Below are positions 2,642 to 64,000 of a stretch of DNA of 64,000 bases, piece by piece. This DNA is from Deltaproteobacteria bacterium. Lineage in GTDB: Bacteria; Myxococcota; Kuafuiibacteriia; Kuafuiibacteriales; Kuafuiibacteriaceae. The DNA lies in assembly GCA_040218735.1 (NCBI GenBank), contig JAVJQW010000003.1:64001-128000 (forward strand), written 5' to 3'. The number at the start of each line of letters is the position of its first letter. Positions within the stretch are counted from its first letter, which is position 1. The notes under the pieces were generated by a model, which had not been told where the DNA came from, did no database searches, and worked only from the letters and a program-made list of their open reading frames with translations. The translations under genes were made by a program, and so were the position numbers.

Positions 2642-4285
2642 ATGAAGCGTACAGCGATGTGGATCGCGGCACCGGCGTTGGTCGTCGGCGTCGCGTACGG
2701 AACGGATGCGATCGCGTGTGGCTGCTTTGCACGGCCCGCGCCGGACGTCGACATCCTGCAGGCCGGGGAGCTTGTCGTGTTCGCGGAGCGCGACGGCAAG
2801 GTGACCATGCAGGTGCAGATCTCTTATTCGGGGCCCGCGGAGAACTTCGCGTGGCTGTTGCCGGTGCCGGCGGAGCCGGAGCTTTCGATCGGCGCGGAGG
2901 AGCTCTTCCTCGAGCTCGACCGACGCACGCAGCCGACGTTCAACGCGCAGATCCAGTTTGCGCAGAACTGCGGCGGTGCGAACGCGCGAGACGCGGCCGC
3001 GGCGCGCACGCTCGACGGCGGCGTGCAGTCGCCGCCCGCGCCGGAGATCGAGGTGTCGCGCCAATTCGTCGGGCCGTACGAAGCGGTCGTCGTCGACGCG
3101 AGCAACCGCGAAGACCTCACGGCGTGGCTCAACGCCAACGGCTTCTTCGTCGCGGACCCGGACGGCACGGCGCTCGAGCCCTACGTGCGCCCCGGTGCGT
3201 ACTTCCTCGCGCTGAAGCTGCAGTCGGATCGTTCGTCGGGTGACATCGCGCCGATCGTCATGGAGTTCGACGCGGCGATGCCGATGATTCCGATCTCCCT
3301 CACGCGCGTCGGCGCGACGCCCGACATGCCGATCTACGTCTGGGTCCTCGGCGAAGCGCGCGCGATCCCGCGCAACTTCCGGAATGTCGTCATCAACATG
3401 GAGCACATCGATTGGCTCCGCGGCGGCAGCAACTACCAACGCGTCGTCACCCGCGCCGTGGACGAGGCGGAGGGGCACCACGCCTTCGTCACGGAGTTCG
3501 CCGGCAGGACGTCGCAGTTCGACTGGACGCTCGCGCCGATCGGGCGCTTCGGATCCAGCGAGACGCTCGAGACCGTGACGGACGCCGCCGACTTCACGAC
3601 CGAGCTCCGCCGCAGGAACTTCCCGTGGCGCGATCGCATGGTGAACATCCTGCGCGACACGTTCCCGTTCCCGCCCGGCGTCGCGAGCGCTGGCGTCCCG
3701 GAGAACATCTACTACGCGGGCCTCGACTTCTACCTCACGACCTACCGCGAGCAGTTCCCGGAGCAGTTCGAGGGGGCGGACTTCTCGTTCGATCCCGTCG
3801 AGCTGACGGCGCTCCTGTGGGAGGCGATCGTGCAGCCGATGAAGGACGGCCAGGCGCTCCTCGACGCTCACCCTCACCTCACGCGTATGTTCACGACGCT
3901 GTCGCCCGACGAGATGTCGCTCGACCCGGCGTTCAGCTTCAACCCGGACCTTCCGGACGTCTCCAACGTCCACACCGCCGAGGTGACGCTCGAGTGCGAC
4001 GGCACCGGCGAGGTCGTCCTCCCCGACGGTCGCGTGCGTTCGGTCGACGAGGTCGGCGACGCCGCAATCGATCGCGCGCCCGCCACGCGACGGATCGAGA
4101 TCCTGATGGAGGAAGGCCCGGCGCAGGTGGAGGTCGACAACGAGATGGCGCTGATGCCGATGAACACGTTGGACGGCTCCTCGCTGAACCGATCGTGCGG
4201 GTGCTCGGCGACGAGCGCGAGCGGCGGCGGCGGTGCGCTCTTGCTCCTGCTGGTCATGGGTCTGGTGGTCCGACGACGGCGCTGA
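2642..4285 (+). CDS. DUF2330 domain protein with C-terminal MYXO-CTERM sorting signal
   Basis: Signal peptide, then ACGCF, FAWLLPVP, WLNANGF and PISLTRVGA motifs. The C-terminus is CGCSATSASGGGGALLLLLVMGLVVRRRR. Confidence 0.85.
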   Translation: MKRTAMWIAAPALVVGVAYGTDAIACGCFARPAPDVDILQAGELVVFAERDGKVTMQVQISYSGPAENFAWLLPVPAEPELSIGAEELFLELDRRTQPTFNAQIQFAQNCGGANARDAAAARTLDGGVQSPPAPEIEVSRQFVGPYEAVVVDASNREDLTAWLNANGFFVADPDGTALEPYVRPGAYFLALKLQSDRSSGDIAPIVMEFDAAMPMIPISLTRVGATPDMPIYVWVLGEARAIPRNFRNVVINMEHIDWLRGGSNYQRVVTRAVDEAEGHHAFVTEFAGRTSQFDWTLAPIGRFGSSETLETVTDAADFTTELRRRNFPWRDRMVNILRDTFPFPPGVASAGVPENIYYAGLDFYLTTYREQFPEQFEGADFSFDPVELTALLWEAIVQPMKDGQALLDAHPHLTRMFTTLSPDEMSLDPAFSFNPDLPDVSNVHTAEVTLECDGTGEVVLPDGRVRSVDEVGDAAIDRAPATRRIEILMEEGPAQVEVDNEMALMPMNTLDGSSLNRSCGCSATSASGGGGALLLLLVMGLVVRRRR

Positions 4286-4321
4286 AGTGATCACCCCGGC
4301 GAGGGGTGTTAGGACGCGGTC

Positions 4322-6130
4322 ATGCGATCCGCACGGCCGACCTGGCTCCTCGTCCTCACCCTCGCCGGCTGCTCGGATTTGGGGCCCGAGACGCAGACTT
4401 CGGGCGCCCCGCTCCTCGCCACGTCTTGTGACGACACCCCCGCCTTCAATCCCCTCGGCAGCGCATCGAGCCCCGAAGCCCTTGTGAGCTCCGCGGACGG
4501 CTCGGTCGTCGCGTTCACGCTCCCCGACGGCGCCGGCGGCCTCGACGTCTTCGTGCGCGACCTCGCGGCCGAGACGCAGGTCGCGCTCGGGACGGCGGCC
4601 GACCCGTCGTACCTCGACATCAGCAGCGACGGGGAGATCGTCGTGTTCCAGTACGCCGTGCTCCCGAGCATCGATCGCGCGCGGATCTTCCGCCGCGACG
4701 GGACCGAGCTCGCCGAGCTGATCATGGGCAAACCGCGGTTGTCGGCGGACGGCGGCCGCGTCGCGGTCGAGAACTACAACGGCGACATCTACTCCGTTGC
4801 GGTGCCCTCCCAGCCGGCGGGGTTCATCTACTCGGTGGACCCCGAGGGGCTCAACGGGGAGCTGCTGCACCTCTCCGCCGACGCTCGCTATCTGATGTAT
4901 CGGCCGAGCCCGGTCGCGCCCGTCGAGCGCGTCGACCGCACCACCGGCGCCATCGTCACGACGGTCGACGCGGGCCCCATTTCCTTGGCCTTCAGCGCAG
5001 ACGGCTCGAAGTTCGTGTACCGCCCGAACAGTGGACTCGGGCTGGCCGTCTACGACATCGACAGCGGCGAGCAGACGACGCTCACGAGCGGCGGCTGGGG
5101 CGACCTCGCGATCAGCGACGACGGGACCTACGCGTTCAGCGACACCGACGAACACCTCGACCCGTACCTTCACGTCGACTGGGCGCACATCTACGCGTTC
5201 AACCTCGAGACGCTGGACGTCGGTTTGATCGAGGCCGACCGCTTCGCGATCGGTCGCATCACGATGAGCGGCGACGGTCGCTTCCTCATCTACGTTACGA
5301 ACGAATCACTCGACCCGGCGGATACCAACGCGACCTACGACCTCTACGTCCAGAGCAACCCCACGCAGTGCGCGGCGTCGGCAACCTACCTTGCGCAGTA
5401 CGCCGCGCCCGGATGTGACGAGCCGGCCGCCAGCTGCGACACCGGCACGCTGGTGGAGAGCCGCGGCAACATCGGGCCGGAGCTCAACGCCCCCAACACT
5501 CTCTTCAACACGTGTCTGGACGGCAACGGCGCGGGGACCCACGCAAACGAATCCATCGAGCGCATCGTGGTGCGGTCGCCAAACGGCGCCAACATCGCGC
5601 CGTACACGGCGCTGGAGATCGATGTGACCACCAAGGCGTACGGCAACGGGACCTCCGACTTCCTCGACGTCTACTACACGGACGACATCTGGCTCGCCGA
5701 CTGGGAACACGTCGGGACGCTGCAGGGCATCGTGGGGGGCGAGCACACGTACTCGATGCAGCACTTCATCCGGACCGGGAACCAGCTCCACGCGTTCCGC
5801 GCGCAGTGGCGATACATGGGCGGCCTCACCCCCCCGGGGCCCTGCTCGCAGGGGTACTACACGGATCACGACGATCTGATCTTTTCAGTGGAACGGGCGA
5901 CGAGCTGGCAGAATCCGCACCTCCAGCACGACGTCAACGACGACGGCACCGTCTCCCCGCTCGACGCGCTCGTCGTGATCAACAAACTCGGCGCGGGCGG
6001 CACCTCGCTGCTCCCGCCGATCTACGGCAACGTCGGCCCGCCGCCCTACTACGACGTCAACGGCGACGGACACGTCACCTCGAGCGACGCGCTCGCGGTG
6101 ATCAACTACCTCGAGCAGCAGCAGAACTAG
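4322..6130 (+). CDS. Lipoprotein: TolB/PD40-like propeller + myxobacterial peptidase-associated C-terminal domain + dockerin-like domain
   Basis: LAGC lipobox; S[AS]DG repeats; SCDTGTLVESRG...NESIERI...DHDDLIFSV domain; duplicated DVNDDGTVSPLDALVVIN / DVNGDGHVTSSDALAVIN. Confidence 0.75.
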   Translation: MRSARPTWLLVLTLAGCSDLGPETQTSGAPLLATSCDDTPAFNPLGSASSPEALVSSADGSVVAFTLPDGAGGLDVFVRDLAAETQVALGTAADPSYLDISSDGEIVVFQYAVLPSIDRARIFRRDGTELAELIMGKPRLSADGGRVAVENYNGDIYSVAVPSQPAGFIYSVDPEGLNGELLHLSADARYLMYRPSPVAPVERVDRTTGAIVTTVDAGPISLAFSADGSKFVYRPNSGLGLAVYDIDSGEQTTLTSGGWGDLAISDDGTYAFSDTDEHLDPYLHVDWAHIYAFNLETLDVGLIEADRFAIGRITMSGDGRFLIYVTNESLDPADTNATYDLYVQSNPTQCAASATYLAQYAAPGCDEPAASCDTGTLVESRGNIGPELNAPNTLFNTCLDGNGAGTHANESIERIVVRSPNGANIAPYTALEIDVTTKAYGNGTSDFLDVYYTDDIWLADWEHVGTLQGIVGGEHTYSMQHFIRTGNQLHAFRAQWRYMGGLTPPGPCSQGYYTDHDDLIFSVERATSWQNPHLQHDVNDDGTVSPLDALVVINKLGAGGTSLLPPIYGNVGPPPYYDVNGDGHVTSSDALAVINYLEQQQN

Positions 6131-22082: not shown

Positions 22083-24071
22083 TCAGAGCCGGAACGCGCG
22101 CACTACGATCACCGCCGCCTGCGCGCGCGTGAGCGCGTCGGCCGGGCAGTACCGCCCCGTCGCGCAGCCGCGCACGTCGTTGCGCGCCGCGAGGCGCTCG
22201 ATCGCCTTGGATGCCCAGTGCGACAGCGGCACGTCGCTGAACGTCGGCGACGACGGCACGCGATCCGCCAACCCCAACGCCCGCCGCACGAACACCGCGC
22301 CGGCGGCGCGCGACACGCCGTCCTCGGGGCAGAAACGTCCGCTCGCGCACCCCTGCATGACCCCTCGCGAGGCGACCTCTTCGACCTCCGCGAAGCCCCA
22401 GTGCCCACGCCCCACATCGTTGAACGACGCGGACGACGGCGCGCTGAAGCTCATCCCGTCCACGCGAGCGATCGCGTACGCGAGCTCCGCCCGCGTGATG
22501 GGTTGGTTCGGGCAGAACTGTCCGGGCGCGCACCCCCACAGCGCGCCGAGCGCACGCAGCTTCTCGGCCGCGCCGTGCCCGAAGGTCCCGGCCGGGAGGT
22601 CGCTGTAGGAACCGGCCGGCGGCGCGGCGCACTGGTCGGGCGTACCCTGCGGCATCGACTGACAGCCGTTCGCGCAGCGGGTGCGGCTCCGTTCGTTGTT
22701 GTTCGCGCAGACCACGAGGTCGTTGCCGTCGCACCAGGTGCCGGCGTGGGTGTCGCAGAACGACGGCGCCGGCGCGCAACGGTCCGGGGTGCCCTGCGGC
22801 ATCGACTGGCACCCGTGGGTGCAGCGCGTGCGGCTCACCGTCGCGCCCGCGTTGCAGACGACGCGGTCGTTGCCGTCGCACCACGTCCCGGTCTTGCCCG
22901 CGCAGAACGACGGCGGCGCGTGGCAACGATCGGGCGTTCCGCTCGGCATCGATCGACACCCGTGCGCGCAGCGGTTCCGGCTGACCTGGGAGCCGTTGCG
23001 GCAGACGACGAGGTCGTTGCCATCGCACCACGTCCCGCCGTGCGTCGCGCAGAACCCACCGCCGCCGCCGGGGTTCGAGCCACGCGCTATCGCGATGAGG
23101 TCGGAGAGGCGAGCGTACAGCGCACCGCCCGGGCAGGCGGTGCTGCCGAGCTGTCGGTGCCCCTTCACGTACGTGCGGTTGAGCGTAATGCCGTACTCCC
23201 GCGAGAGCGACTTCAGGATGCGACCACCCGCCGCGAACATCGCGTTGCTCGGCGCGCGCGACGTGAACGTTCCGATGTAGCTCACGCCCGCGTTGTTCGT
23301 GTTGTGCCCACCGACGTGCGCACCGATGAGGCGCTCCGGTCGCCCCTGATAGACGCGGCCGTCCTGTCCGACGAGGAAGTGGTACCCCACGTCGCACCAG
23401 CCTCGAGAGTTCATGTGGAACGACTGGATCTGCCGGACGCGCGCGGCCTGCGACATGCTGTCGTTGTTCGGCGTGACGGTGTGGTGGACGGTGATGCGGT
23501 TGGGGCGGTGGCCACCGCTGCAGCGCGACGCGCGCGCGCCCCACGCTGAGCGCGACACCGCAACCCCGGTTGACGCGAGCCCGCTCGCGGACGTCCCGAT
23601 CTCTTCGACTTCCTCGACCGGCTGCGGATCGAAGTGGAACGCTTCCACCGCGAGGAACGACAGGTCGAGGACCTCGGAGGTCGAGAAGCGGAGCTGCACG
23701 TGGGTGCCGCCCTCGCGGACGTCGACGTGCGCGTTCTTCGCGCGCTCCTCTGAGAACGTGATCTCGGCGTCGAGCCACGCGCCGAACGTCTCCCCGCCGT
23801 CGTTCGAGACGCGCGCCTGGGCGAGCACGGCGCCGGTCGCGTCGAAACGGAACGCAATGCGATCGAACTCGACGTCGAGCGGGATGGCGTCGGTGCGTTG
23901 CCAGCCGTCTTCGACGACGAGGCGGCTCGCGAGCTCTTCGTCCTGGGCGACGAACGCCACCTCCGGCTCGTCGATCGCCTCGGCCGGGTGCAGAAGGTCG
24001 GCGTCGGCGCAGGCCACGACGAGTGTCGAAAGCGCGGCGAGGTGGAACGGACGGAGGCGTACGGCGGACAT
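22083..24071 (-). CDS. N-acetylmuramoyl-L-alanine amidase (Amidase_2/PGRP type) lipoprotein with three Cys-rich repeats and three SLH domains
   Basis: VVAC lipobox; ITVHHT, GWCDVGYHFLV, IGAHV and GHRQLGSTACPG; 3x WCDGND..VC repeats; SLH motifs FCPNQPITRAE, FCPEDGVSRAA and YCPADALTRAQ. Confidence 0.9.
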   Translation of the reverse strand: MSAVRLRPFHLAALSTLVVACADADLLHPAEAIDEPEVAFVAQDEELASRLVVEDGWQRTDAIPLDVEFDRIAFRFDATGAVLAQARVSNDGGETFGAWLDAEITFSEERAKNAHVDVREGGTHVQLRFSTSEVLDLSFLAVEAFHFDPQPVEEVEEIGTSASGLASTGVAVSRSAWGARASRCSGGHRPNRITVHHTVTPNNDSMSQAARVRQIQSFHMNSRGWCDVGYHFLVGQDGRVYQGRPERLIGAHVGGHNTNNAGVSYIGTFTSRAPSNAMFAAGGRILKSLSREYGITLNRTYVKGHRQLGSTACPGGALYARLSDLIAIARGSNPGGGGGFCATHGGTWCDGNDLVVCRNGSQVSRNRCAHGCRSMPSGTPDRCHAPPSFCAGKTGTWCDGNDRVVCNAGATVSRTRCTHGCQSMPQGTPDRCAPAPSFCDTHAGTWCDGNDLVVCANNNERSRTRCANGCQSMPQGTPDQCAAPPAGSYSDLPAGTFGHGAAEKLRALGALWGCAPGQFCPNQPITRAELAYAIARVDGMSFSAPSSASFNDVGRGHWGFAEVEEVASRGVMQGCASGRFCPEDGVSRAAGAVFVRRALGLADRVPSSPTFSDVPLSHWASKAIERLAARNDVRGCATGRYCPADALTRAQAAVIVVRAFRL

Positions 24072-24216
24072 GGATCTCGAAATACGTCCGGACCCGCGGT
24101 ACACGCAATCGCACAAGGCGAGTCATTTCACAGACTTGTGGCTATCGGGTTACAGGTGTGGATCGCGGGGTTACGGGTTGGGTGACGGACCTGCGCCACT
24201 TCGTACACTAAGAGAC

Positions 24217-25091: not shown

Positions 25092-26270
25092 ATGCTCCCC
25101 CGCACGTTCGCCGTCCTCCCAGTGTTCGCTTTGGCGGCGTGCGGCGGGAGCGGTTGAAAGGGTGTGTCGAGCGGCTCGAAGCCGACGAAGCGGTCGACGC
25201 CCGACGCGGGCGTGACGACCGCGCACTCGGCGTCGCCGCTATCGGAGGACACGTTTGTCTTCGAGGTTCGGGTCGCCTCGGGTGCATCCGAGATCCATGC
25301 GTTCGACGTCGCGACATCGCAGCGCCGGAAGATCTTCACGGTGGCGGACACGACGACCTGGGACCTGACCGACCTGGCGTTGTCGCCGTCGCGGGACACG
25401 ATCGCGTTCAGCTCACACTTCGGCTACGACCCGATGCAGTTCCCGCTCGAGGACGGTCTGCCGACGCAGTCGATCTGGACGGTCGGCGTGGATGGCGCTT
25501 CACCTCGTCAGCTGATGGCGCCGCTCGCCGACGACCGCGGCGCGATCGAGTGCACGCACGACTCGACGTGTGAACCGTTGGGGATGAAGTGCTCCACGGT
25601 GTTGTCGCGCTGCCGTGACTTCGCGCGGACGCGGACGGTGTCGGAGCTCGTGTGGTCGCCGAACGGGGCGGAGGTCTGGTTCGTCTACGCCGACCACGAC
25701 TGGCAGGGGACGCAGCTTCGCGGCGGCACGACGCTCGGCCGCGTCGCGGCGACGGGCGGCGCGCCGGAGCTGTTCGCGGCGAACGGCGGCTGCGCCCAGG
25801 TCACGGGTCCGGCGCCCCACCCCGTCGACGGATCGCTCGTCGCGGTGCAGAGCGTGTGCACGCGGGGTGGCGCGCGCATGGTGCGGTTCGACTCGATGCC
25901 GCCGCGTGAGGGGACGGAGCTGTTCAGCGAAGCCGACGTGGAGTTCTCGCTCGACCTCTCCGACGTCGAGTGGGCGCGCGACGGCAGCGGCTTCATCTTC
26001 GGCGCGTGGGGCGGCGCGTTTGCGTCCGACGCCATCGTCTACCTCGAAGCGGCCACGGGGACGCTGTATCTCGCATTCGAGGCCGGCGTGGGCCGGTGGA
26101 TCGAGAGCCAGGACCTCGCGCCCGATTCGAAGCGCATGGTCGTATGCGTGGGCGAGACGGGCGCCGACGGCGAGGCGCGGCGGGACCTGTACCTCGTCGA
26201 CCTCACGGCGACGACGCCAAGCGCGACGCGGCTGACGACGGACGGGATCAGCTGCAACGCGAGCTGGTGA
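25092..26270 (+). pseudogene. TolB-like beta-propeller lipoprotein interrupted by an in-frame TGA at 25155-25157 (pseudogene, recoding or sequence error)
   Basis: ATG 25092 gives MLPRTFAVLPVFALAACGGSG*KGVSSG..., and the same frame continues to 26270 with LSPSRD, WSPNG, WARDG and LAPDS propeller motifs. Confidence 0.7.
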
Positions 26271-26294
26271 GGTATCCCACAGGCTGCCTGGCCT

Positions 26295-26603
26295 CTAGGT
26301 CCCGCTCGCACAGCTCCACTTTGGATACGAGTCAGACTTGTGGCGGTTGTTCCTCCAGTGGAGCGGCTGGAGATTACTGAGATCGTCGCTACCCCCCGCC
26401 GACACTGGAACGATGTGGTCGACCTCCCATCCGAACTCCCCGGTCGTTCCGTAGCTCCCATACTTCATGGGGGCTCCACAGACATCCTGACGCCACACGT
26501 TCGCATCATATCCGGGTATCGGACGCCCCTTCGACCAGACGAGGTCCACGGTGTGATGTGAGAACCCGAATCCGATCAACGTACTTCCAAAACTTCGAGT
26601 CAT
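26295..26603 (-). CDS. Small stand-alone HNH endonuclease
   Basis: GGAGGA RBS and ATG 26603; GWEVDHIVPVSAGGSDDLSNLQPLHWRNNRHKSD is an HNH motif. Confidence 0.9.
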   Translation of the reverse strand: MTRSFGSTLIGFGFSHHTVDLVWSKGRPIPGYDANVWRQDVCGAPMKYGSYGTTGEFGWEVDHIVPVSAGGSDDLSNLQPLHWRNNRHKSDSYPKWSCASGT

Positions 26604-26631
26604 AGATTCCTCCAACGCGCGGTGCGCGACT

Positions 26632-26648
26632 ACCTCTATCTTAGAGGT
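26632..26648. promoter_or_regulatory. Inverted repeat ACCTCTA-N3-TAGAGGT overlapping a -10-like TAAGAT of the HNH gene
   Basis: Perfect 7-bp arms about 30 bp upstream of the HNH start; the minus strand reads ctcTAAGATagagg. Confidence 0.5.
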
Positions 26649-26768
26649 CGCGTGCCGCAGGACCAGCGTTTCGATTGTCGATGATCGACCTGGGATCGCG
26701 TGATCGCCCTACGACCGTTGGTTCTGGTTTGCGATCGCCACGAGATCGCGCGATCGTTCCTCGATCGC

Positions 26769-27743
26769 ATGGCAACCAGGAATCAGGACGGGAAGCGATC
26801 GCTACGACTACTGGCCAAGCTAATGGGAGGGGCCAGGCTGGATCGCAACTCAGCAGCCAAGGCACTGGGGACCGAGCCCCCTGCTGCGTATCAGCACCTG
26901 AAAGCGCTGGCTGCCACTGTTCCAGGAGTACGCTCTGTAAAGGGAGGAGGGACCACGACGTACTTCTTCGATTCCGGGCGACTCGTTGAGCCGCCAAGCC
27001 TTCCCGAGGTGATCGCAGCGTGTCTCGCAAGCAGCCTTTCCGGGCTGTTCCGCGATTCGCAGTACGAACATCGAATTCAGACGGTCTTCGACTTCATTGT
27101 TCGGTCGGCGCGAAGGCGACCGGGCTTCGCGAATATCCGGCGGAAGTTCTACTTTGTTGTCGGCGGAGGTGAGGTAGCGCTTGCTCAGAACGAGGGGCTT
27201 CTGGACGACGCAATCAACGCGCTGATCGCAAGCAAGTGGATTCGCATTCGATATGTTCATTTCAACGGTGATGAGGAAACGGTCGACATTCAACCTCTAA
27301 CGCTCGCGATCCATGACCACCAGTTGTACCTCGTTGGACAAAACTCCACGGCAAGGCACCCATACAGATTCGCGAGAATCCGAGACCTTGAAGAACTTGA
27401 GACGCGATTCTCCTATCCGACGGCCTCAGAGTACGATCCGACAACGTTGTTCCGCTCGAGCTTTGGGGTGTTCGTTTCCGAGGACTTTCCGAGTCAACGT
27501 GTGGTGGTACGGCTCCATCCTAGATGGGAGACCTACGCACTCAATCACCGATGGCATCCGTCCCAGGAGGTCAAGCGCGGCGACAATGGGATCACGGTAA
27601 GGCTGCAAGTCAGAGTGTGCCCCGAGGTCGAAGCATGGGTCCTAGGCTTCGGGAATGACGCGGTGGTCATTGAGCCCGAAGCGCTCCGGACGAAGATTGC
27701 CGGCCGCCTTAGGGCGGCCAGCGAAAGCTACGGTGGTGAGTGA
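26769..27743 (+). CDS. HTH-WYL(-WCX) domain transcriptional regulator
   Basis: N-terminal wHTH-like segment; IRYVH...VDIQPLTL..HDHQLYLVG...YRFARI (WYL); FGVF, WHPSQ and WVLGFGNDAVVIEPEALR (WCX). Confidence 0.9.
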   Translation: MATRNQDGKRSLRLLAKLMGGARLDRNSAAKALGTEPPAAYQHLKALAATVPGVRSVKGGGTTTYFFDSGRLVEPPSLPEVIAACLASSLSGLFRDSQYEHRIQTVFDFIVRSARRRPGFANIRRKFYFVVGGGEVALAQNEGLLDDAINALIASKWIRIRYVHFNGDEETVDIQPLTLAIHDHQLYLVGQNSTARHPYRFARIRDLEELETRFSYPTASEYDPTTLFRSSFGVFVSEDFPSQRVVVRLHPRWETYALNHRWHPSQEVKRGDNGITVRLQVRVCPEVEAWVLGFGNDAVVIEPEALRTKIAGRLRAASESYGGE

Positions 27744-27745
27744 TG

Positions 27746-27762
27746 TGTTGCGCTGAGCAACA
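27746..27762. terminator. Short hairpin between the convergent WYL and panB genes
   Basis: tgttgc-gctga-gcaaca; no strong U tract. Confidence 0.3.
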
Positions 27763-27767
27763 TTCGC

Positions 27768-28676
27768 CTAGACCGGCACGCCGTAGAGGCCGCCGACTTC
27801 GTCGTCGTCGTCGATCTCCTGGGGCGCGGGGCGCACCACCTCCACGGGCCGGAACAGCTGCTCCTTGGAGTGGAACGTGTGCCGCTCCTCCGGGAAGGTG
27901 CCCTCGACGACTTCGCGCTTGTACTCGCCGACCGCTTCGACGACGGCGTCGCCGAGCTTGGCGTAGCGCTTCACGAACTTCGGGACGAAGTCCTCGAACA
28001 TGCCGAGGAGGTCGTAACAAACGAGCACCTGGCCGTCGCAGTCGACGCCGGCGCCGATGCCGATCGTCGGGATCGACAGCTGCGCCGTGACCACGCGCGA
28101 CAGCTCCACCGGCACGCCTTCCAACACGATCGCGTACGCGCCCGCGGCTTCGAGCGCCTTCGCGTCGCGCAGGATGCGCTCGGCCGCCGCGGCGTCCTTG
28201 CCCTGCACCTTGAAGCCGCCCATCGCGTGCACCGACTGCGGCGTGAGGCCGAGGTGGCCCATGACCGGGATGCCCGCGCCGACGAGGCGCTCCACCAGCG
28301 GCGCGTACACCGCGCCGCCTTCGAGCTTCACCGAGTGCGCGCCGCCCTCCTTCATCAGGCGGCCGGCGCTCCTAAAGCCTTCGGTCGGGTCGGCCTGGTA
28401 GCTCATGAACGGCAGGTCCGCGACGACGTGCGCGCGGGACGCGCCGCGGACGACCGCGCGGGTGTGGTAGATGATGTCGTCGAGCGTGACCGCGAGGGTG
28501 TTCTGCGCGCCCTGGATCACCATCCCGAGCGAGTCGCCCACGAGGATGACGTCGGCGCCGCCGCGGTCGACCAACCGCGCCATCGTCGCGTCGTACGCGG
28601 TGATCATGGTGATGCGCTCGCCGTCGGCCTTCATCTGCCGCAGCGTGGACGCAGTGACTTGTTTGATTCGCTTCAT
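27768..28676 (-). CDS. panB: 3-methyl-2-oxobutanoate hydroxymethyltransferase
   Basis: [29 protein letters not shown] and IGIGAG..CDGQVLV motifs. Confidence 0.97.
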
Positions 28677-28753
28677 CGTTGACCTCTCGAGGTCGACGCT
28701 CCTCACGAGGAGAAGTCGCCGCCCCGCCTTCAGTCGGGGTGAACGACGCGTTC
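28677..28753 (-). promoter_or_regulatory. Structured panB leader with tandem hairpins, possibly a cis-regulatory RNA
   Basis: The mRNA contains CCUCGUGAGG and CCUCGAGAGG hairpins 18 nt apart plus a CCCCG/CGGGG hairpin; the proximal stem includes the SD-like GAGAGG. Confidence 0.45.
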
Positions 28754-29419
28754 TCAGCGACGCGTCGCGTAAGGATTATAGTGCTGAACGCCTTTTTTCA
28801 TTCGACGAATGGCGGAGATGACATCTTCCAAATGATTCTCCTTTTCGACGATGTCGATCTCCGAGGTGTTGATCACCAGCAGCGGCGTCCGGTCGTAGCG
28901 GAAGAAGTAGTCGTTGTACGCCGAGGACACCCGCTCCAGGTAATCCTGCGTGATCGGCCGCTCCCAATCGCGGTTCCGACTGCGGATTCGGTCGAGGAGC
29001 ACCTGCGGCCGCGCCTGCAGGTACACCACCAGATCCGGCTTCGGGACGCGGGGATCGAGCAGCCCGTAGATCCGGTCGTACAGCGCGAGCTCCGCCTCCT
29101 CGAGCGTCAGGTACGCGAAGATCCGGTCCTTCTGGAAGATGTAGTCGACGACCGTGCTGCGCGTGAACAGGTCCGGCTGCTTCAGCGATAGCTGCTGCTG
29201 GTAACGCGACAGCAGGAAGAACATCTGCGTCTGGAACGCCGTACGGCGCGGATCCGAGTAGAACTGCCGCAGGAACGGGTTCGTCTCGACCTCCTCGAGC
29301 ACCAGCTGCGCGGACAGGCGCTTCGCCAGGGATCGGGCGAGCGTCGTCTTCCCCACGCCCACGGGCCCCTCGATCGCGATCGTCCGCGGGGCCTCCTTTT
29401 CGTTCCTGCGCTTGGGCAT
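28754..29419 (-). CDS. Deoxynucleoside kinase family protein
   Basis: [14 protein letters not shown]-loop, [14 protein letters not shown] and PDLVVYLQA motifs. Confidence 0.93.
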
Positions 29420-29507
29420 TTCGCCGGCGCGACTGTACGGACCGATCCGCGCTCCGCGCAAGCGACGACGGTGGCCATACATCGAAACATATGGTCATAT
29501 TTTGCCA

Positions 29508-56704: not shown

Positions 56705-57405
56705 CGCCGGCGCTTCTTCTTCTTCACCCAGTCCACGACGCTGATGTCGTGCCGCACGCGCTCGCCGTTCTTGGCTTCTGCGGTGAGCGTCGCCGACCCG
56801 ATCGCGCGCGCCTCGACCTCACCGGTCGGCGTCACGGTGACCGCCCAGCTCGACGCGTTCCAATCGATCTTCGCGTCCTCGATCACGTTGCCGCGATCGT
56901 CGAGCACCTCGGCCTTGAAGTTCTTGATCTCACCCATCGGCATCTCGATCGGCTCTTCACTCTCCGGCGGATCCACCCAGCGGATCTTGTCGACGATGAC
57001 GGCCTCGATCGGCACCTCGGCCGACAGCTCCTTTTCGAGCTTCGTCGTGCGCGCCTTGATGACCGACTTCCCGCTGCCGAGGATCGTGACGACGCCGGAC
57101 TGATCGATCGAAGCGACCGTGCGATCCGTCGAGTCCCACTTCACGGGCGCGACGCCCATGTACACGCCGCGGTCGTCGAACGAGGAGACACGCAGCTTGA
57201 TCGTGTCGCCCTTGTTCTCGAACGTGGGGAAGACGGTCTTCGCGTCCTTCGTCTTCTGCAGCGACTCGACCGCGTCGAGTGGCCCCTTGATCCGAATCTC
57301 CGACGGCACCTTCTCGCAGGCGCTCACCACCAACGCGATCGCCGGCATCCACAGCCAGCCGCGCATTCGCTCCCAGAGTCGTCGTCGTCGCCGTCGGTTC
57401 GCCAT
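56701..57405 (-). CDS. Ig-like (Big_2) domain lipoprotein; start 57405 or 57366
   Basis: VSAC lipobox; WDSTDRTVASIDQSGVVT and VTPTGEVEA Big_2-type motifs. Confidence 0.8.
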   Translation of the reverse strand: MANRRRRRRLWERMRGWLWMPAIALVVSACEKVPSEIRIKGPLDAVESLQKTKDAKTVFPTFENKGDTIKLRVSSFDDRGVYMGVAPVKWDSTDRTVASIDQSGVVTILGSGKSVIKARTTKLEKELSAEVPIEAVIVDKIRWVDPPESEEPIEMPMGEIKNFKAEVLDDRGNVIEDAKIDWNASSWAVTVTPTGEVEARAIGSATLTAEAKNGERVRHDISVVDWVKKKKRRR

Positions 57406-63109: not shown

Positions 63110-64000
63110 GTGGAGCTGAGCCAAGTCAGTCAGATGTTCGAGGCGATCGAGGACGAGATCCGCAAGGTCTTCGTCGGCCAGGACGAAGTCCTGAGCAACG
63201 TCCTCGTCGCGATGCTCGCGCGCGGTCACGTGCTGCTGGAAGGTGTACCCGGCGTCGGCAAGACGCTGCTGGTGAGGACGCTCGGCCACGTGCTGGGTTG
63301 TCACTTCCGCCGCGTGCAATTCACGCCGGACCTCATGCCGTCCGACGTGACGGGCTCGACGCTCTACAACACCCAAAAGGGTGAGTTCGAGTTCAAACAC
63401 GGGCCGGTGTTCACGCACATCCTGTTGGCCGACGAGGTCAACCGTGCGCCCGCGAAGACGCAGTCGGCGATGCTGGAGTCGATGGCGGAGCGCTCCGTCA
63501 CCGTGGACGGTGTGACCCACCCGCTGCCGGCGCCGTACTTCGTGCTCGCGACCCAGAACCCACTGGAGAGCGCCGGCACCTACGCGCTCCCCGAGGCGCA
63601 GCTCGATCGCTTCCTCTTCAAGGTGTTGATTCGGCACCCGGCGAAGGACGTCGAAGAGCAGCTCCTCAGGAACGTGCGCGATGGGTTCGACGCAGCCGAT
63701 CTCGAAGCCGCGCAGCTGAGACGCGTGACCAGCGCGGAGGGGTTGGTGCGGATGCAGCAGGCGATCAACCAGGTGACGGTCGACGACAAGATCATCAGCT
63801 ACATCGCCGACCTCGTGGGCGTGACCCGTCGGCACCGCGCGGTGCAGATCGGTGCGTCGCCGCGCGCGGCGATCGCGCTCCTGCAGACCTCGCGTGTGGA
63901 GGCCGCCGTGCAGGGCCGCAACTTCGTGGTGCCGGACGACGTGAAGACCCACGGCGCCGCGGTGCTCCGTCACCGGATCATCCTGCAGCCCGACGCGGAG
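63110..64000 (+). CDS. MoxR family AAA+ ATPase (3' truncated by the window)
   Basis: GGAGGA and GTG 63110; read manually as VFVGQDEV, LLEGVPGVGKT, FTPDLMPSD, LADEVNRAPAKTQSA and LPEAQLDRF. Confidence 0.93.
   Translation, partial: MELSQVSQMFEAIEDEIRKVFVGQDEVLSNVLVAMLARGHVLLEGVPGVGKTLLVRTLGHVLGCHFRRVQFTPDLMPSDVTGSTLYNTQKGEFEFKHGPVFTHILLADEVNRAPAKTQSAMLESMAERSVTVDGVTHPLPAPYFVLATQNPLESAGTYALPEAQLDRFLFKVLIRHPAKDVEEQLLRNVRDGFDAADLEAAQLRRVTSAEGLVRMQQAINQVTVDDKIISYIADLVGVTRRHRAVQIGASPRAAIALLQTSRVEAAVQGRNFVVPDDVKTHGAAVLRHRIILQPDAE

Follow-up and report, generated by a model that had tools for sequence, protein, structure and literature searches.

In the 64-kb stretch of DNA analysed here (the window), the gene of a DriD/PafBC-like WYL regulator and a gene for a small HNH nuclease stand head to head on 1.47 kb of DNA with foreign composition, which appears to have been inserted between two convergent host genes. 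We tentatively read this pair as an acquired module in which the DriD-like regulator turns on the small nuclease when single-stranded DNA (ssDNA) appears.

Composition and limits of the cassette

The low-GC cassette lies at 26272..27740, these limits being approximate. Its GC content of 0.582 over 1470 bp is the minimum of the window (mean 0.693, sd 0.027), and no other 1470-bp stretch falls under 0.62. GC3 is 0.70 in the HNH gene and 0.64 in the WYL gene, compared to 0.86-0.95 in five flanking genes. The spacer and both genes have about 0.58-0.60 GC versus 0.69 for the window, and this similarity among the three parts fits a single acquisition. On the left, the limit falls in the stretch from 26270, where the left gene stops, to the HNH stop at 26295; on the right, it falls in the stretch from the WYL stop at 27743 to that of panB at 27768. 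Within about 25 bp of the HNH and WYL stops the GC3 is back to host-like values of 0.92 and 0.95. The flanking genes, which are convergent, encode an unknown protein of 368 aa on the left (25164-26270) and PanB on the right. The neighbours in the window are housekeeping genes with host-like codon use (panB, deoxynucleoside kinase, murA), with no defence island.

Several of these features had been described in a sequence-only reading of the window, and its description stands. Its counts of 25/60 and 45/60 G+C inside and outside the cassette are exact, and the abrupt change that it saw marks the lowest-GC stretch of the window. The open reading frames confirm the gene content that it gave, a 102-aa HNH gene with a strong ribosome-binding site and a head-to-head 324-aa WYL gene; the ORF list and Pfam agree that the cassette has neither a methyltransferase nor an obvious immunity gene. 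It was also right that integrase and transposase are absent, none being found among the ORFs of 26150-27900; the same interval has no long terminal repeat. The heptamer TGGTGAG does occur near both edges as it had noted, at 26265..26271 (plus strand, overlapping the stop of the left gene) and at 27734..27740 (plus strand, within the final WYL codons). The heptamer occurs six times over both strands of the window (a third plus-strand copy at 63270 and three on the minus strand) and, being a 7-mer, is weak evidence for a target-site duplication.

No tRNA gene was found within the 64-kb window, and an HMM search found no paralogue or fragment of the HNH or WYL genes elsewhere in it. A hairpin with a 6-bp stem, TGTTGC-GCTGA-GCAACA (27746..27762), lies between the WYL and panB stops. 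It is not followed by a T-run and was not called by the terminator scan; possibly it is the original spacer of the convergent host genes. Taken as a whole, the cassette looks like horizontally acquired DNA.

The WYL regulator and the HNH nuclease

The regulator gene (26769..27743, plus strand) encodes 324 aa from its ATG. An alternative GTG start at 26700 would give 347 aa; the ATG is preferred because the N-termini of relatives fit it. Pfam detects WYL (9.1e-9, residues 168-231 of the 347-aa form) and WCX (7.6e-15), and none of its HTH models scores above threshold. In the AF2 model (pLDDT 90), residues 2-67 form a winged HTH of three helices and a beta-hairpin, followed by a helical-bundle linker (helices 78-94, 98-114 and 123-126). 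Pfam, phmmer against PDB, AF2 and Foldseek together describe a protein of wHTH, three-helix bundle, Sm-like WYL domain and WCX dimerisation domain. A single-sequence phmmer search of PDB aligned residues 9-322 with DriD (9pfq, 8tp8; E 4e-8) and also matched entries of the DriD C-domain (2e-6) and, weakly, PafBC chains; BrxR and CapW were not found among the PDB structures at E<=1. With a profile, DriD (1.2e-37) and PafBC (5.7e-34) came up strongly and both BrxR and CapW were detected. Foldseek of the AF2 model gave DriD 2e-19, PafBC 4e-13, BrxR 3e-7 and CapW 1e-6, with TM 0.73-0.74 for the DriD C-domain; its full-length alignment to DriD takes in the wHTH as well. The BrxR and CapW entries (3e-7 to 1e-4) rank 7-12 orders of magnitude behind DriD and PafBC. 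Sequence and predicted fold both place the regulator in the DriD/PafBC class, at a much greater distance from BrxR and CapW. The sequence-only reading had modelled it on CapW and on BrxR, which is a repressor; the single-sequence and Foldseek searches speak against that model.

The WYL subfamily comprises 138 cluster representatives at E<=1e-30, among them genes of Hyalangium (P0144) and Polyangium (P0150), the closest non-self relative being 47% identical. Its longer forms (P0243, P0263, P0250, P0357) carry no informative extra Pfam domain. Plasmid matches (15 records, from Thermus, Prevotella and Persicobacter) cover the WYL-WCX half only, at 27-30% identity, and the phage collection searched with the WYL protein gave no match. 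In PADLOC the best match is a Cas-associated WYL model (2.2e-24), which is generic for the domain and points to no named system.

The nuclease gene (26295..26603, minus strand) encodes a stand-alone HNH protein of the HNN type, 102 aa from the ATG, with a ribosome-binding site GGAGGA (26608..26613, minus strand) 4 nt ahead of that codon. Pfam detects HNH (3.7e-9) and HNH_4 (2e-6). The active site is intact: an alignment of 25 family members shows no variation at the columns of the catalytic D62-H63, N77 and N86. These are spaced by 14 and 9 residues, as are D839/H840/N854/N863 in SpCas9. The AF2 model (pLDDT 92) has strands at 60-64 and 79-83 and a helix at 84-89, matching the beta-beta-alpha-metal fold. 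Its core aligns locally with the HNH domains of 4h9d, Cas9 and colicin (rmsd about 1-3 Å over 25-50 columns). Foldseek with the whole model found no match at E<=0.001, all E-values being at least 0.07, and the best one was 4h9d (E 0.073, TM 0.39-0.41). The N-terminal 55 residues or so are conserved in the family and have no solved counterpart. Against PADLOC-DB v2 the protein matched Cas9 models (E 5e-4 to 0.08) and REase_II (0.038), with no named or candidate system, and its NCBIfam matches were far under the cut-offs. Neither protein of the cassette therefore matches a named defence system in PADLOC, an outcome that the sequence-only reading had held to favour novelty.

The nuclease belongs to a widespread family of stand-alone proteins of about 100 aa, with at least 583 relatives among representative genomes, and its closest non-self relative is 62% identical. 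Only one of 74 longer candidates is a fused form, a CopG/RHH fusion (P0235). Plasmid matches amount to 14 records; the two that span nearly the whole protein are on cyanobacterial plasmids, where the annotated neighbours are uninformative. Phage matches amount to 156 records; in 155 of them the match is partial and concerns an HNH gene at the end of a mycobacteriophage genome. The remaining phage record, unannotated and from a human sample, is a near-full-length HNH match.

Conservation of the divergent pair, which the sequence-only reading had made a test of its proposal, was not borne out from the HNH side. No WYL ORF was found within 5 kb of HNH relatives at any of 80 loci (3,930 ORFs), either by phmmer with the window WYL protein (E<=1e-3) or by hmmsearch with the WYL profile A2 (E<=1). 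This profile recovers the window WYL gene at 1.4e-124, by construction, and it finds BrxR and CapW in PDB, so such proteins near HNH relatives would not have escaped. Likewise, Pfam found WYL or WCX in none of 152 immediate neighbours, and no contig common to HNH and WYL relatives was recognised among the matches listed. The literature search returned no described divergent WYL/HNH pair, as judged by title or abstract among the papers listed, and no wHTH-WYL-WCX protein with HNH; WYL-HNH fusions are mentioned in the available part of PMC4012209. The pairing of WYL and HNH looks like a one-off, lineage-specific instance and not a widespread new defence system.

What the relatives do have is a regulator on one side. 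The upstream neighbour is a regulator in 17 of 78 loci and the downstream neighbour in 3 of 74 (Fisher p 0.0014), as counted from crude longest-ORF gene calls at loci that are partly related. The upstream regulators are of the XRE, LexA/S24 (3 loci), MerR, M78 (IrrE/ImmA-type, 4 loci) and ECF sigma types; the four MerR cases are all alphaproteobacterial. LexA/S24 and IrrE/ImmA-type M78 proteins are damage-responsive switches. This enrichment upstream and not downstream suggests that the HNH family tends to bring its own switch. At about 23 of 79 loci (L080 left out) an immediate neighbour was labelled restriction, CBASS-type, toxin-antitoxin, integrase or transposase, the labels being assigned from Pfam names and the count having no background control.

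The intergenic region and a possible circuit

The divergent HNH and WYL genes have in common an intergenic region of 165 bp, in which we recognised two operator-like blocks. O1 (26680..26719) carries three GATCG (26683, 26694 and 26702) plus a degenerate CGACCG (26712), and 22 of its 40 positions are self-complementary. O2 (26730..26769) reads TGCGATCG-N6-GATCGCGCGATC-N6-CGATCGCA, is self-complementary at 28 of 40 positions and ends on the A of the WYL ATG. The two blocks contain a direct repeat of 35 nt, 71% identical and 50 bp apart. Seven GATCG occur in 90 bp (26683-26772), whereas no other place in the window has more than four, and in first-order Markov simulations of 64 kb six or more were seen in none of 200. 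The array is likely an operator, as predicted from its sequence.

A perfect 17-bp palindrome, ACCTCTA-TCT-TAGAGGT (26632..26648), is a candidate for the HNH -10 region or for a second operator. It contains the sole intergenic TANNNT hexamers, TAAGAT on the minus strand (26643-26638) and TATCTT on the plus strand (26637-26642). As an operator alone we rejected it: the window has 113 palindromes with arms of at least 7 and loops of at most 7, which gives 0.29 expected per 165 bp, and its occurrence is not significant. A consensus promoter scan of 26200-27900 found no promoter, and a terminator scan of the same interval gave a single terminator-like site, within the WYL gene, a yield not above that of shuffled sequences.

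These elements can be assembled into a possible circuit. A dimer of the WYL regulator would bind the GATCG-based palindromic O1 and O2, and since O2 abuts the WYL start codon, the regulator would also control its own gene. The WYL/WCX pocket may bind short ssDNA arising from DNA damage or from replicating foreign DNA, and the ssDNA-bound regulator would then switch on the HNH promoter, activation being the presumed sign. With its -10-like TAAGAT and no good -35, this putative promoter resembles activator-dependent promoters. Relative to the putative HNH start site the array is about 50-165 nt upstream, which is not clearly the -35 position used by DriD. The HNN-type nuclease, once made, would nick or cut DNA.

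Alternative readings and comparison with known systems

The sequence-only reading had offered a sensor-toxin acting by abortive infection, or a damage-response unit. Nothing shows a defence role, and the DNA-damage module fits better. In the anti-phage version, a BrxR/CapW-like WYL protein would repress the HNH gene until infection-derived ssDNA appears, and the nuclease, once released, would destroy the DNA of phage and host alike. Such ssDNA-sensing WYL repressors of defence operons exist, CapW being one according to the text available of PMC11662680, and Foldseek detects BrxR and CapW by fold. The overlap of O2 with the WYL start codon is typical of repression, the cassette looks horizontally acquired, and the defence or mobile-type neighbours counted above suggest that the HNH family resides in variable or defence regions. 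However, that count lacks a background control, the resemblance to BrxR and CapW is far weaker than that to DriD and PafBC and, in the single-sequence search, absent at E<=1, and PADLOC gives a generic WYL model and weak HNH matches (E>=5e-4). The housekeeping neighbours and the unconserved pair also argue against it, and we consider an anti-phage module unlikely. The cassette might also be the remnant of a larger known system, such as a CRISPR-Cas or restriction locus stripped of the rest of its genes, as the Cas-associated WYL model and the weak matches to Cas9 HNH and type II REase might hint. That WYL model is a general one for the domain. Neither ORF is broken or shortened compared to its family, the flanks turn host-like within about 25 bp, into an unrelated protein and panB, and the HMM search of the window brought up no further copy or piece of either gene. 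A remnant is very improbable.

HNH genes are classic mobile endonucleases, and the two genes could be unlinked passengers: a promiscuous, selfish or homing-like HNH gene and a WYL protein regulating itself or distant genes in the manner of DriD and PafBC, brought together by an accident of transfer. This would account for the 80 loci without a WYL neighbour, the very heterogeneous neighbours, the distance of the closest relatives (just 62% identity for HNH and 47% for WYL) and the failure to recognise a common contig among the matches listed; DriD itself controls several unlinked promoters, as stated in the accessible part of PMC10853764. Against it stand the head-to-head layout with a significant, structured repeat array filling the common 165-bp region, the equal composition of the two genes and the excess of regulators upstream of HNH relatives. 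We regard it as unlikely as well, though marginally less so than the anti-phage module. If the pair worked like a toxin-antitoxin system, with the WYL protein also binding the nuclease and thereby neutralising it, the absence of a separate immunity gene would be explained, and one HNH relative is indeed fused to a CopG-type antitoxin/RHH domain. This reading is at odds with an HNH family that mostly lacks a WYL partner, and the literature available to us in part describes no WYL regulator as a protein antitoxin. Complex prediction of WYL with HNH scored 0.00 in both runs and, its controls having not folded, is no evidence either way. We hold direct neutralisation to be extremely improbable.

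If the WYL protein drives the HNH gene, as in the damage-responsive module that we prefer, DriD/PafBC-type ssDNA-sensing damage regulation would extend to Myxococcota-like genomes, in a portable two-gene unit with a compact and easily testable operator and output. Small stand-alone HNH genes are usually dismissed as 'McrA-like'. The family is common and uncharacterised, and its tendency towards upstream regulators would give a handle on its function. A broader and quite speculative view is that the ~100-aa HNH protein is a widespread plug-in effector captured independently by LexA/S24, by XRE with or without an IrrE/ImmA-type M78 protease, by MerR, by ECF sigma and by a DriD-like WYL regulator. 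If this were true, minimal modules of the 'sensor plus tiny nuclease' kind would form a class of their own, with roles in processing DNA upon damage, in cell suicide or in defence against phages. Its first WYL-driven version would then be the one in the window, and the 138 representatives (E<=1e-30) would be a new DriD-like clade with a GATCG-type operator.

Among known nucleases, the Gme HNH nicking endonuclease of Geobacter metallireducens (PDB 4H9D) and the Cas9 HNH domain, the top Foldseek matches, have in common with the cassette protein a small beta-beta-alpha-metal core. A transcription factor that switches on an HNN-type HNH nuclease is known from Mycobacterium smegmatis, in which the ArsR regulator MSMEG_6762 turns on the DNase MSMEG_1275 under stress and this enzyme cuts the DNA of its own cell (available text of PMC9416677). 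The likeness, compared by description, is limited to that arrangement; the regulator family is another one, the genes are non-adjacent and the nuclease is far larger (catalytic H258).

Among WYL regulators, BrxR and CapW (PDB 7T8K, 7QFZ, 7TB5, 9C5G) are likewise WYL-WCX proteins adjoining the genes that they control. They head BREX and CBASS operons, whereas the cassette has no BREX or CBASS genes and HNH is the sole partner. PafBC of actinobacteria (PDB 6SJ9, 9FND), a heterodimeric WYL activator of a LexA-independent damage response, is the second-best relative. Its trigger is reported as ssDNA in the part of PMC11804915 at hand. It has two subunits or is fused, and binds its non-palindromic site only with RNA polymerase (PMC10853764, in part), unlike the single 324-aa gene and palindromic repeats of the cassette.

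The closest parallel is DriD of Caulobacter crescentus, a wHTH-3HB-WYL-WCX activator of an SOS-independent damage response (PDB 8TP8, 7TZV, 9PFQ; available parts of PMC10853764, PMC9186387 and PMC13004042), whose four-part architecture recurs in our AF2 model at only about 22% identity. The ssDNA contacts of DriD, nine residues named in the accessible text of PMC9186387, are partly kept. In the phmmer alignment Y168 and R207 are retained as Y and R, Y192 corresponds to Y187 in a near-invariant column, and W206 and Y240 are conservatively replaced by Y and F. R176, R178 and R288 are lost (to E, V and P) and R204 is opposite a gap; DriD itself no longer binds ssDNA when mutated to R176A-R178A. 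In the recognition helix, the DNA-reading R36, R37, T38 and R43 are replaced by P, P, A and L, which precludes deducing the operator by homology, and the DriD motif CGAC-N7-GTCG differs from the repeated element of the cassette. The gene arrangement is alike: driD lies at a bidirectional promoter with a DriD site (PMC13004042, in part), DriD motifs lie about 17 nt ahead of the regulator start codon (PMC10853764, in part), and in the cassette, too, palindromic DNA immediately precedes the start codon of a divergent regulator gene. DriD promoters are without a -35 element, and DriD activates the endonuclease gene bapE, according to the available text of PMC13004042. The switching on of bapE by DriD in Caulobacter would thus be the counterpart of the proposed circuit, with HNH as the target.

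A foreign two-gene cassette and its spacer

A 102-aa HNH ORF (26295..26603, minus strand) and a 324-aa WYL ORF (26769..27743, plus strand) are flanked on the left by a host-like 368-aa gene whose family is unknown (25164..26270, plus strand, GC3 0.92) and on the right by panB (27768..28706, minus strand; GC3 0.95, Pfam Pantoate_transf 9e-116). G+C of the window is about 69%. At 0.582 over 1470 bp, the cassette is the window minimum (mean 0.693, sd 0.027); nowhere else in the window does G+C fall below 0.62 at this length. GC3 is 0.70 for HNH and 0.64 for WYL, compared to 0.86-0.95 in five neighbor genes. Because the 165-bp spacer between the two start codons (G+C 0.60) has the same composition as both genes, a single foreign origin for genes and spacer is the simplest reading. 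The ORFs, Pfam families and G+C bear out the foreign two-gene cassette described in an earlier sequence-only reading. Its base counts (25/60 and 45/60 G+C) were exact on recount, and the strong ribosome binding site it assigned to the HNH gene is GGAGGA, 4 nt upstream of the ATG at 26603. TGGTGAG, which it placed near both edges, is found at 26265 and 27734; a 7-mer that the window contains six times when both strands are counted, it hints only weakly at a target-site duplication. The cassette has no integrase or transposase, as that reading had said, and neither a tRNA gene nor a long terminal repeat. A perfect GC-rich inverted repeat (GGCCGCC-TTAG-GGCGGCC, 27702-27719), with no T-run after it, lies within the final 15 codons of the WYL gene. 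The GC profile has a second dip at about 28550-29000, at a deoxynucleoside kinase gene next to panB (28754-29482, minus strand), whose GC (0.63) and GC3 (0.86) are under those of its neighbors. To the left of the cassette, a 677-aa protein (22083-24116, minus strand) has Amidase_2 and SLH domains separated by three cysteine-rich repeats of ~45 aa (TWCDGND..VC...C.HGC).

The spacer contains seven copies of GATCG within 90 bp (26683-26772). The next-densest place in the window has four copies, and 200 first-order Markov simulations of 64 kb gave maxima of 3-5 and never reached six. Two GATCG blocks, O1 (26680-26719) and O2 (26730-26769), stand in 50-bp register as a 35-nt direct repeat with 71% identity. 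O2 reads TGCGATCG-N6-GATCGCGCGATC-N6-CGATCGCA, is self-complementary at 28/40 positions, and ends at the A of the WYL ATG. Two more copies are inside the WYL gene (GCGATCGC at 26795 and GATCGC at 26841). The O1/O2 array is a clear candidate operator of the cassette; what binds it, and with what effect, we only infer. Elsewhere in the window, GATC is second-densest at 56856-57010, with seven copies in 130 bp. Nearer the HNH gene, a perfect 17-bp palindrome (ACCTCTA-TCT-TAGAGGT, 26632-26648) holds all TANNNT hexamers of the spacer; TAAGAT lies on the HNH strand about 35 nt upstream of the HNH ATG, with no good -35 before it. Since 0.29 palindromes of this grade are expected per 165 bp, the palindrome is only a candidate functional element.

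Class of the WYL regulator

The 324-aa protein has Pfam WYL and WCX domains, and its AF2 model (pLDDT 90) contains a winged HTH at residues 2-67 and a helical linker at 78-126. BrxR and CapW, the WYL repressors that the sequence-only reading took as its model, gave way in three comparisons to DriD, the Caulobacter crescentus activator, followed by actinobacterial PafBC. Single-sequence phmmer against the PDB matched DriD at 4e-8 over residues 9-322 and PafBC at 0.1-0.4, with no BrxR or CapW at E<=1. A profile of 36 relatives gave 1.2e-37, 5.7e-34, 2.4e-7, and 5.2e-7 for DriD, PafBC, BrxR, and CapW, respectively, and Foldseek of the model gave 2e-19, 4e-13, 3e-7, and 1e-6. Judged from sequence and model, the regulator is assigned to the DriD/PafBC class. 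The DriD papers (8TP8 and 8TPK, PMC10853764; 7U02 and 7TZV, PMC9186387; 9PFQ, 9PFV and 9PGA, PMC13004042) describe an activator of the DNA-damage response triggered by ssDNA, as does PMC11804915 for PafBC. By sequence, the window protein falls into a distinct subfamily. An exhaustive search gave 138 cluster representatives at E<=1e-30, 655 at 1e-10 and 3941 at 1e-3, and the closest non-self relative is 47% identical. Named members are from Hyalangium and Polyangium, and the plasmids and phages searched contained no member. One member, P0243 (595 aa), has a 270-aa N-terminal extension without Pfam family.

The DriD contacts listed in PMC9186387 were placed on the single-sequence phmmer alignment. 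Five ssDNA contacts are kept or conservatively replaced (Y168, Y192, W206 (Y), R207, and Y240 (F)), and Y192 corresponds to Y187 of the window protein in a near-invariant column of the relatives' alignment. R176, R178, and R288 are replaced by E, V, and P, respectively, and R204 falls in an alignment gap. On this balance the protein plausibly senses ssDNA, though the contacts do not establish it. At the positions of the DNA-reading residues R36, R37, T38, and R43 the window protein has P, P, A, and L, so that an operator different from that of DriD would be expected.

The small HNH family and its neighbors

The 102-aa protein matches Pfam HNH (3.7e-9) and HNH_4. Of 208 candidates from a word-indexed search, 204 are relatives; they come from many phyla, and nearly all are 87-113 aa and 50-62% identical except for one 99% copy. 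Scanning one genome per species gave at least 583 relatives. D62-H63, N77, N86 (102-aa numbering) and much of the N-terminal half are invariant in a 25-member alignment. The confident AF2 model (pLDDT 92) matched no solved structure at E<=0.001; its top match was Geobacter Gme, a small HNH nickase (4h9d, E 0.073), and HNH domains of Cas9 came next. Among PDB sequences, the family profile matched Cas8f-fused HNH domains (E ~1e-4) and nothing else. Among 74 longer candidates the sole relative is P0235 (205 aa, on a 2006-bp contig), with a CopG-antitoxin/RHH domain (Pfam 2.9e-29) ahead of HNH, which could be a genuine fusion or a frameshifted pair. The family, then, really is stand-alone, and it is uncharacterized.

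Conservation of the divergent pair, raised by the sequence-only reading, was not found: 0/80 loci of the best 80 of the at least 583 relatives (numbered up to L080) had a WYL ORF. Among 3,930 ORFs of >=50 aa up to 5 kb each side of HNH, none matched the window WYL protein by phmmer (E<=1e-3) or a 36-member diverse WYL-regulator profile (E<=1). This profile detects BrxR and CapW in the PDB, thus such proteins near HNH would show. Pfam found no WYL/WCX in the immediate neighbors, 78 upstream and 74 downstream ORFs (150 scanned at E<=1e-5, two of L079 separately; 42 upstream neighbors without family re-scanned at E<=0.01; L080 excluded as a duplicate of the Thioploca locus L065). The WYL-HNH pairing is not conserved from the HNH side, and the evidence shows it to be specific to one lineage rather than a conserved system.

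Other regulators lie directly upstream of HNH in 17/78 cases versus 3/74 directly downstream (Fisher p 0.0014; 13/78 and p 0.016 with M78 left out), as counted from crude longest-ORF gene calls at partly related loci. They are XRE-type HTH (L013, L020, L027, L028), LexA or S24 (L018, L056, L061), MerR (L034, L050, L064, L076, all alphaproteobacterial), same-strand IrrE/ImmA-type M78 peptidase (L002, L070, L012, L033), and ECF sigma region 2 (L022, L055). The M78-HNH order (L002:766-1878, L070:838-1892, L012:2663-3825, L033:4147-5303; gaps of 13, 24, 120, and 114 bp) looks like a recurrent two-gene unit, with the matches of L012 and L033 at E ~1e-4 only, yet above the Pfam cut-off. In two genomes of the candidate phyla radiation and in a gammaproteobacterium, the LexA or S24-peptidase genes are divergent from HNH (L056:4148-5264, L061:1949-2559, L018:256-1357), which suggests SOS control of this HNH family. 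The MerR-family genes (~155 aa; upstream ORFs at ~4200-4770, minus strand) are also divergent, and an XRE-type HTH gene also follows HNH in L034 and L064. That small HNH genes of this family generally tend to come together with a switch is the lead of more interest.

Readings of the pair and known systems

The cassette is a real, foreign, two-gene unit of a known type, the WYL-regulated local module. Of the two roles named by the sequence-only reading, the evidence shifts weight away from a BrxR/CapW-like repressor of an abortive-infection toxin and toward a damage-type regulator. The WYL protein reads as a DriD-like and probably ssDNA-sensing regulator, and the small nuclease would be its local output.

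That the two genes are unlinked passengers of one transfer has to be weighed between the HNH loci lacking WYL and the operator-like array shared by the pair; we consider it unlikely. An anti-phage module is slightly less probable again. At about 23/79 loci the immediate neighbor is restriction-modification, CBASS-type cyclase, KAP NTPase, AbiEii, HicAB, integrase or transposase, by labels read off Pfam names with no background rate for comparison; PADLOC and NCBIfam searches named no system for HNH. A remnant of a larger system, set against host-like flanks on both sides, is very improbable, and a toxin-antitoxin pair, which the RHH fusion of P0235 might recall in a family otherwise stand-alone, even more so.

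In a literature search thin on subscription journals, no description of a divergent WYL and small-HNH pair was found. PMC4012209 mentions WYL-HNH domain fusions, and PMC9416677 describes an HNH suicide nuclease driven by a regulator in M. smegmatis. In its layout the cassette resembles DriD. The driD gene is at a bidirectional promoter bearing a DriD site, a layout like that of the cassette spacer, and DriD promoters have no -35 element (PMC13004042), as the candidate HNH promoter has no good one. DriD motifs lie about 17 nt upstream of the regulator start codon (PMC10853764), and O2 abuts the WYL ATG. The DriD target bapE is an endonuclease gene (PMC13004042), and the partner in the cassette is an HNH gene.
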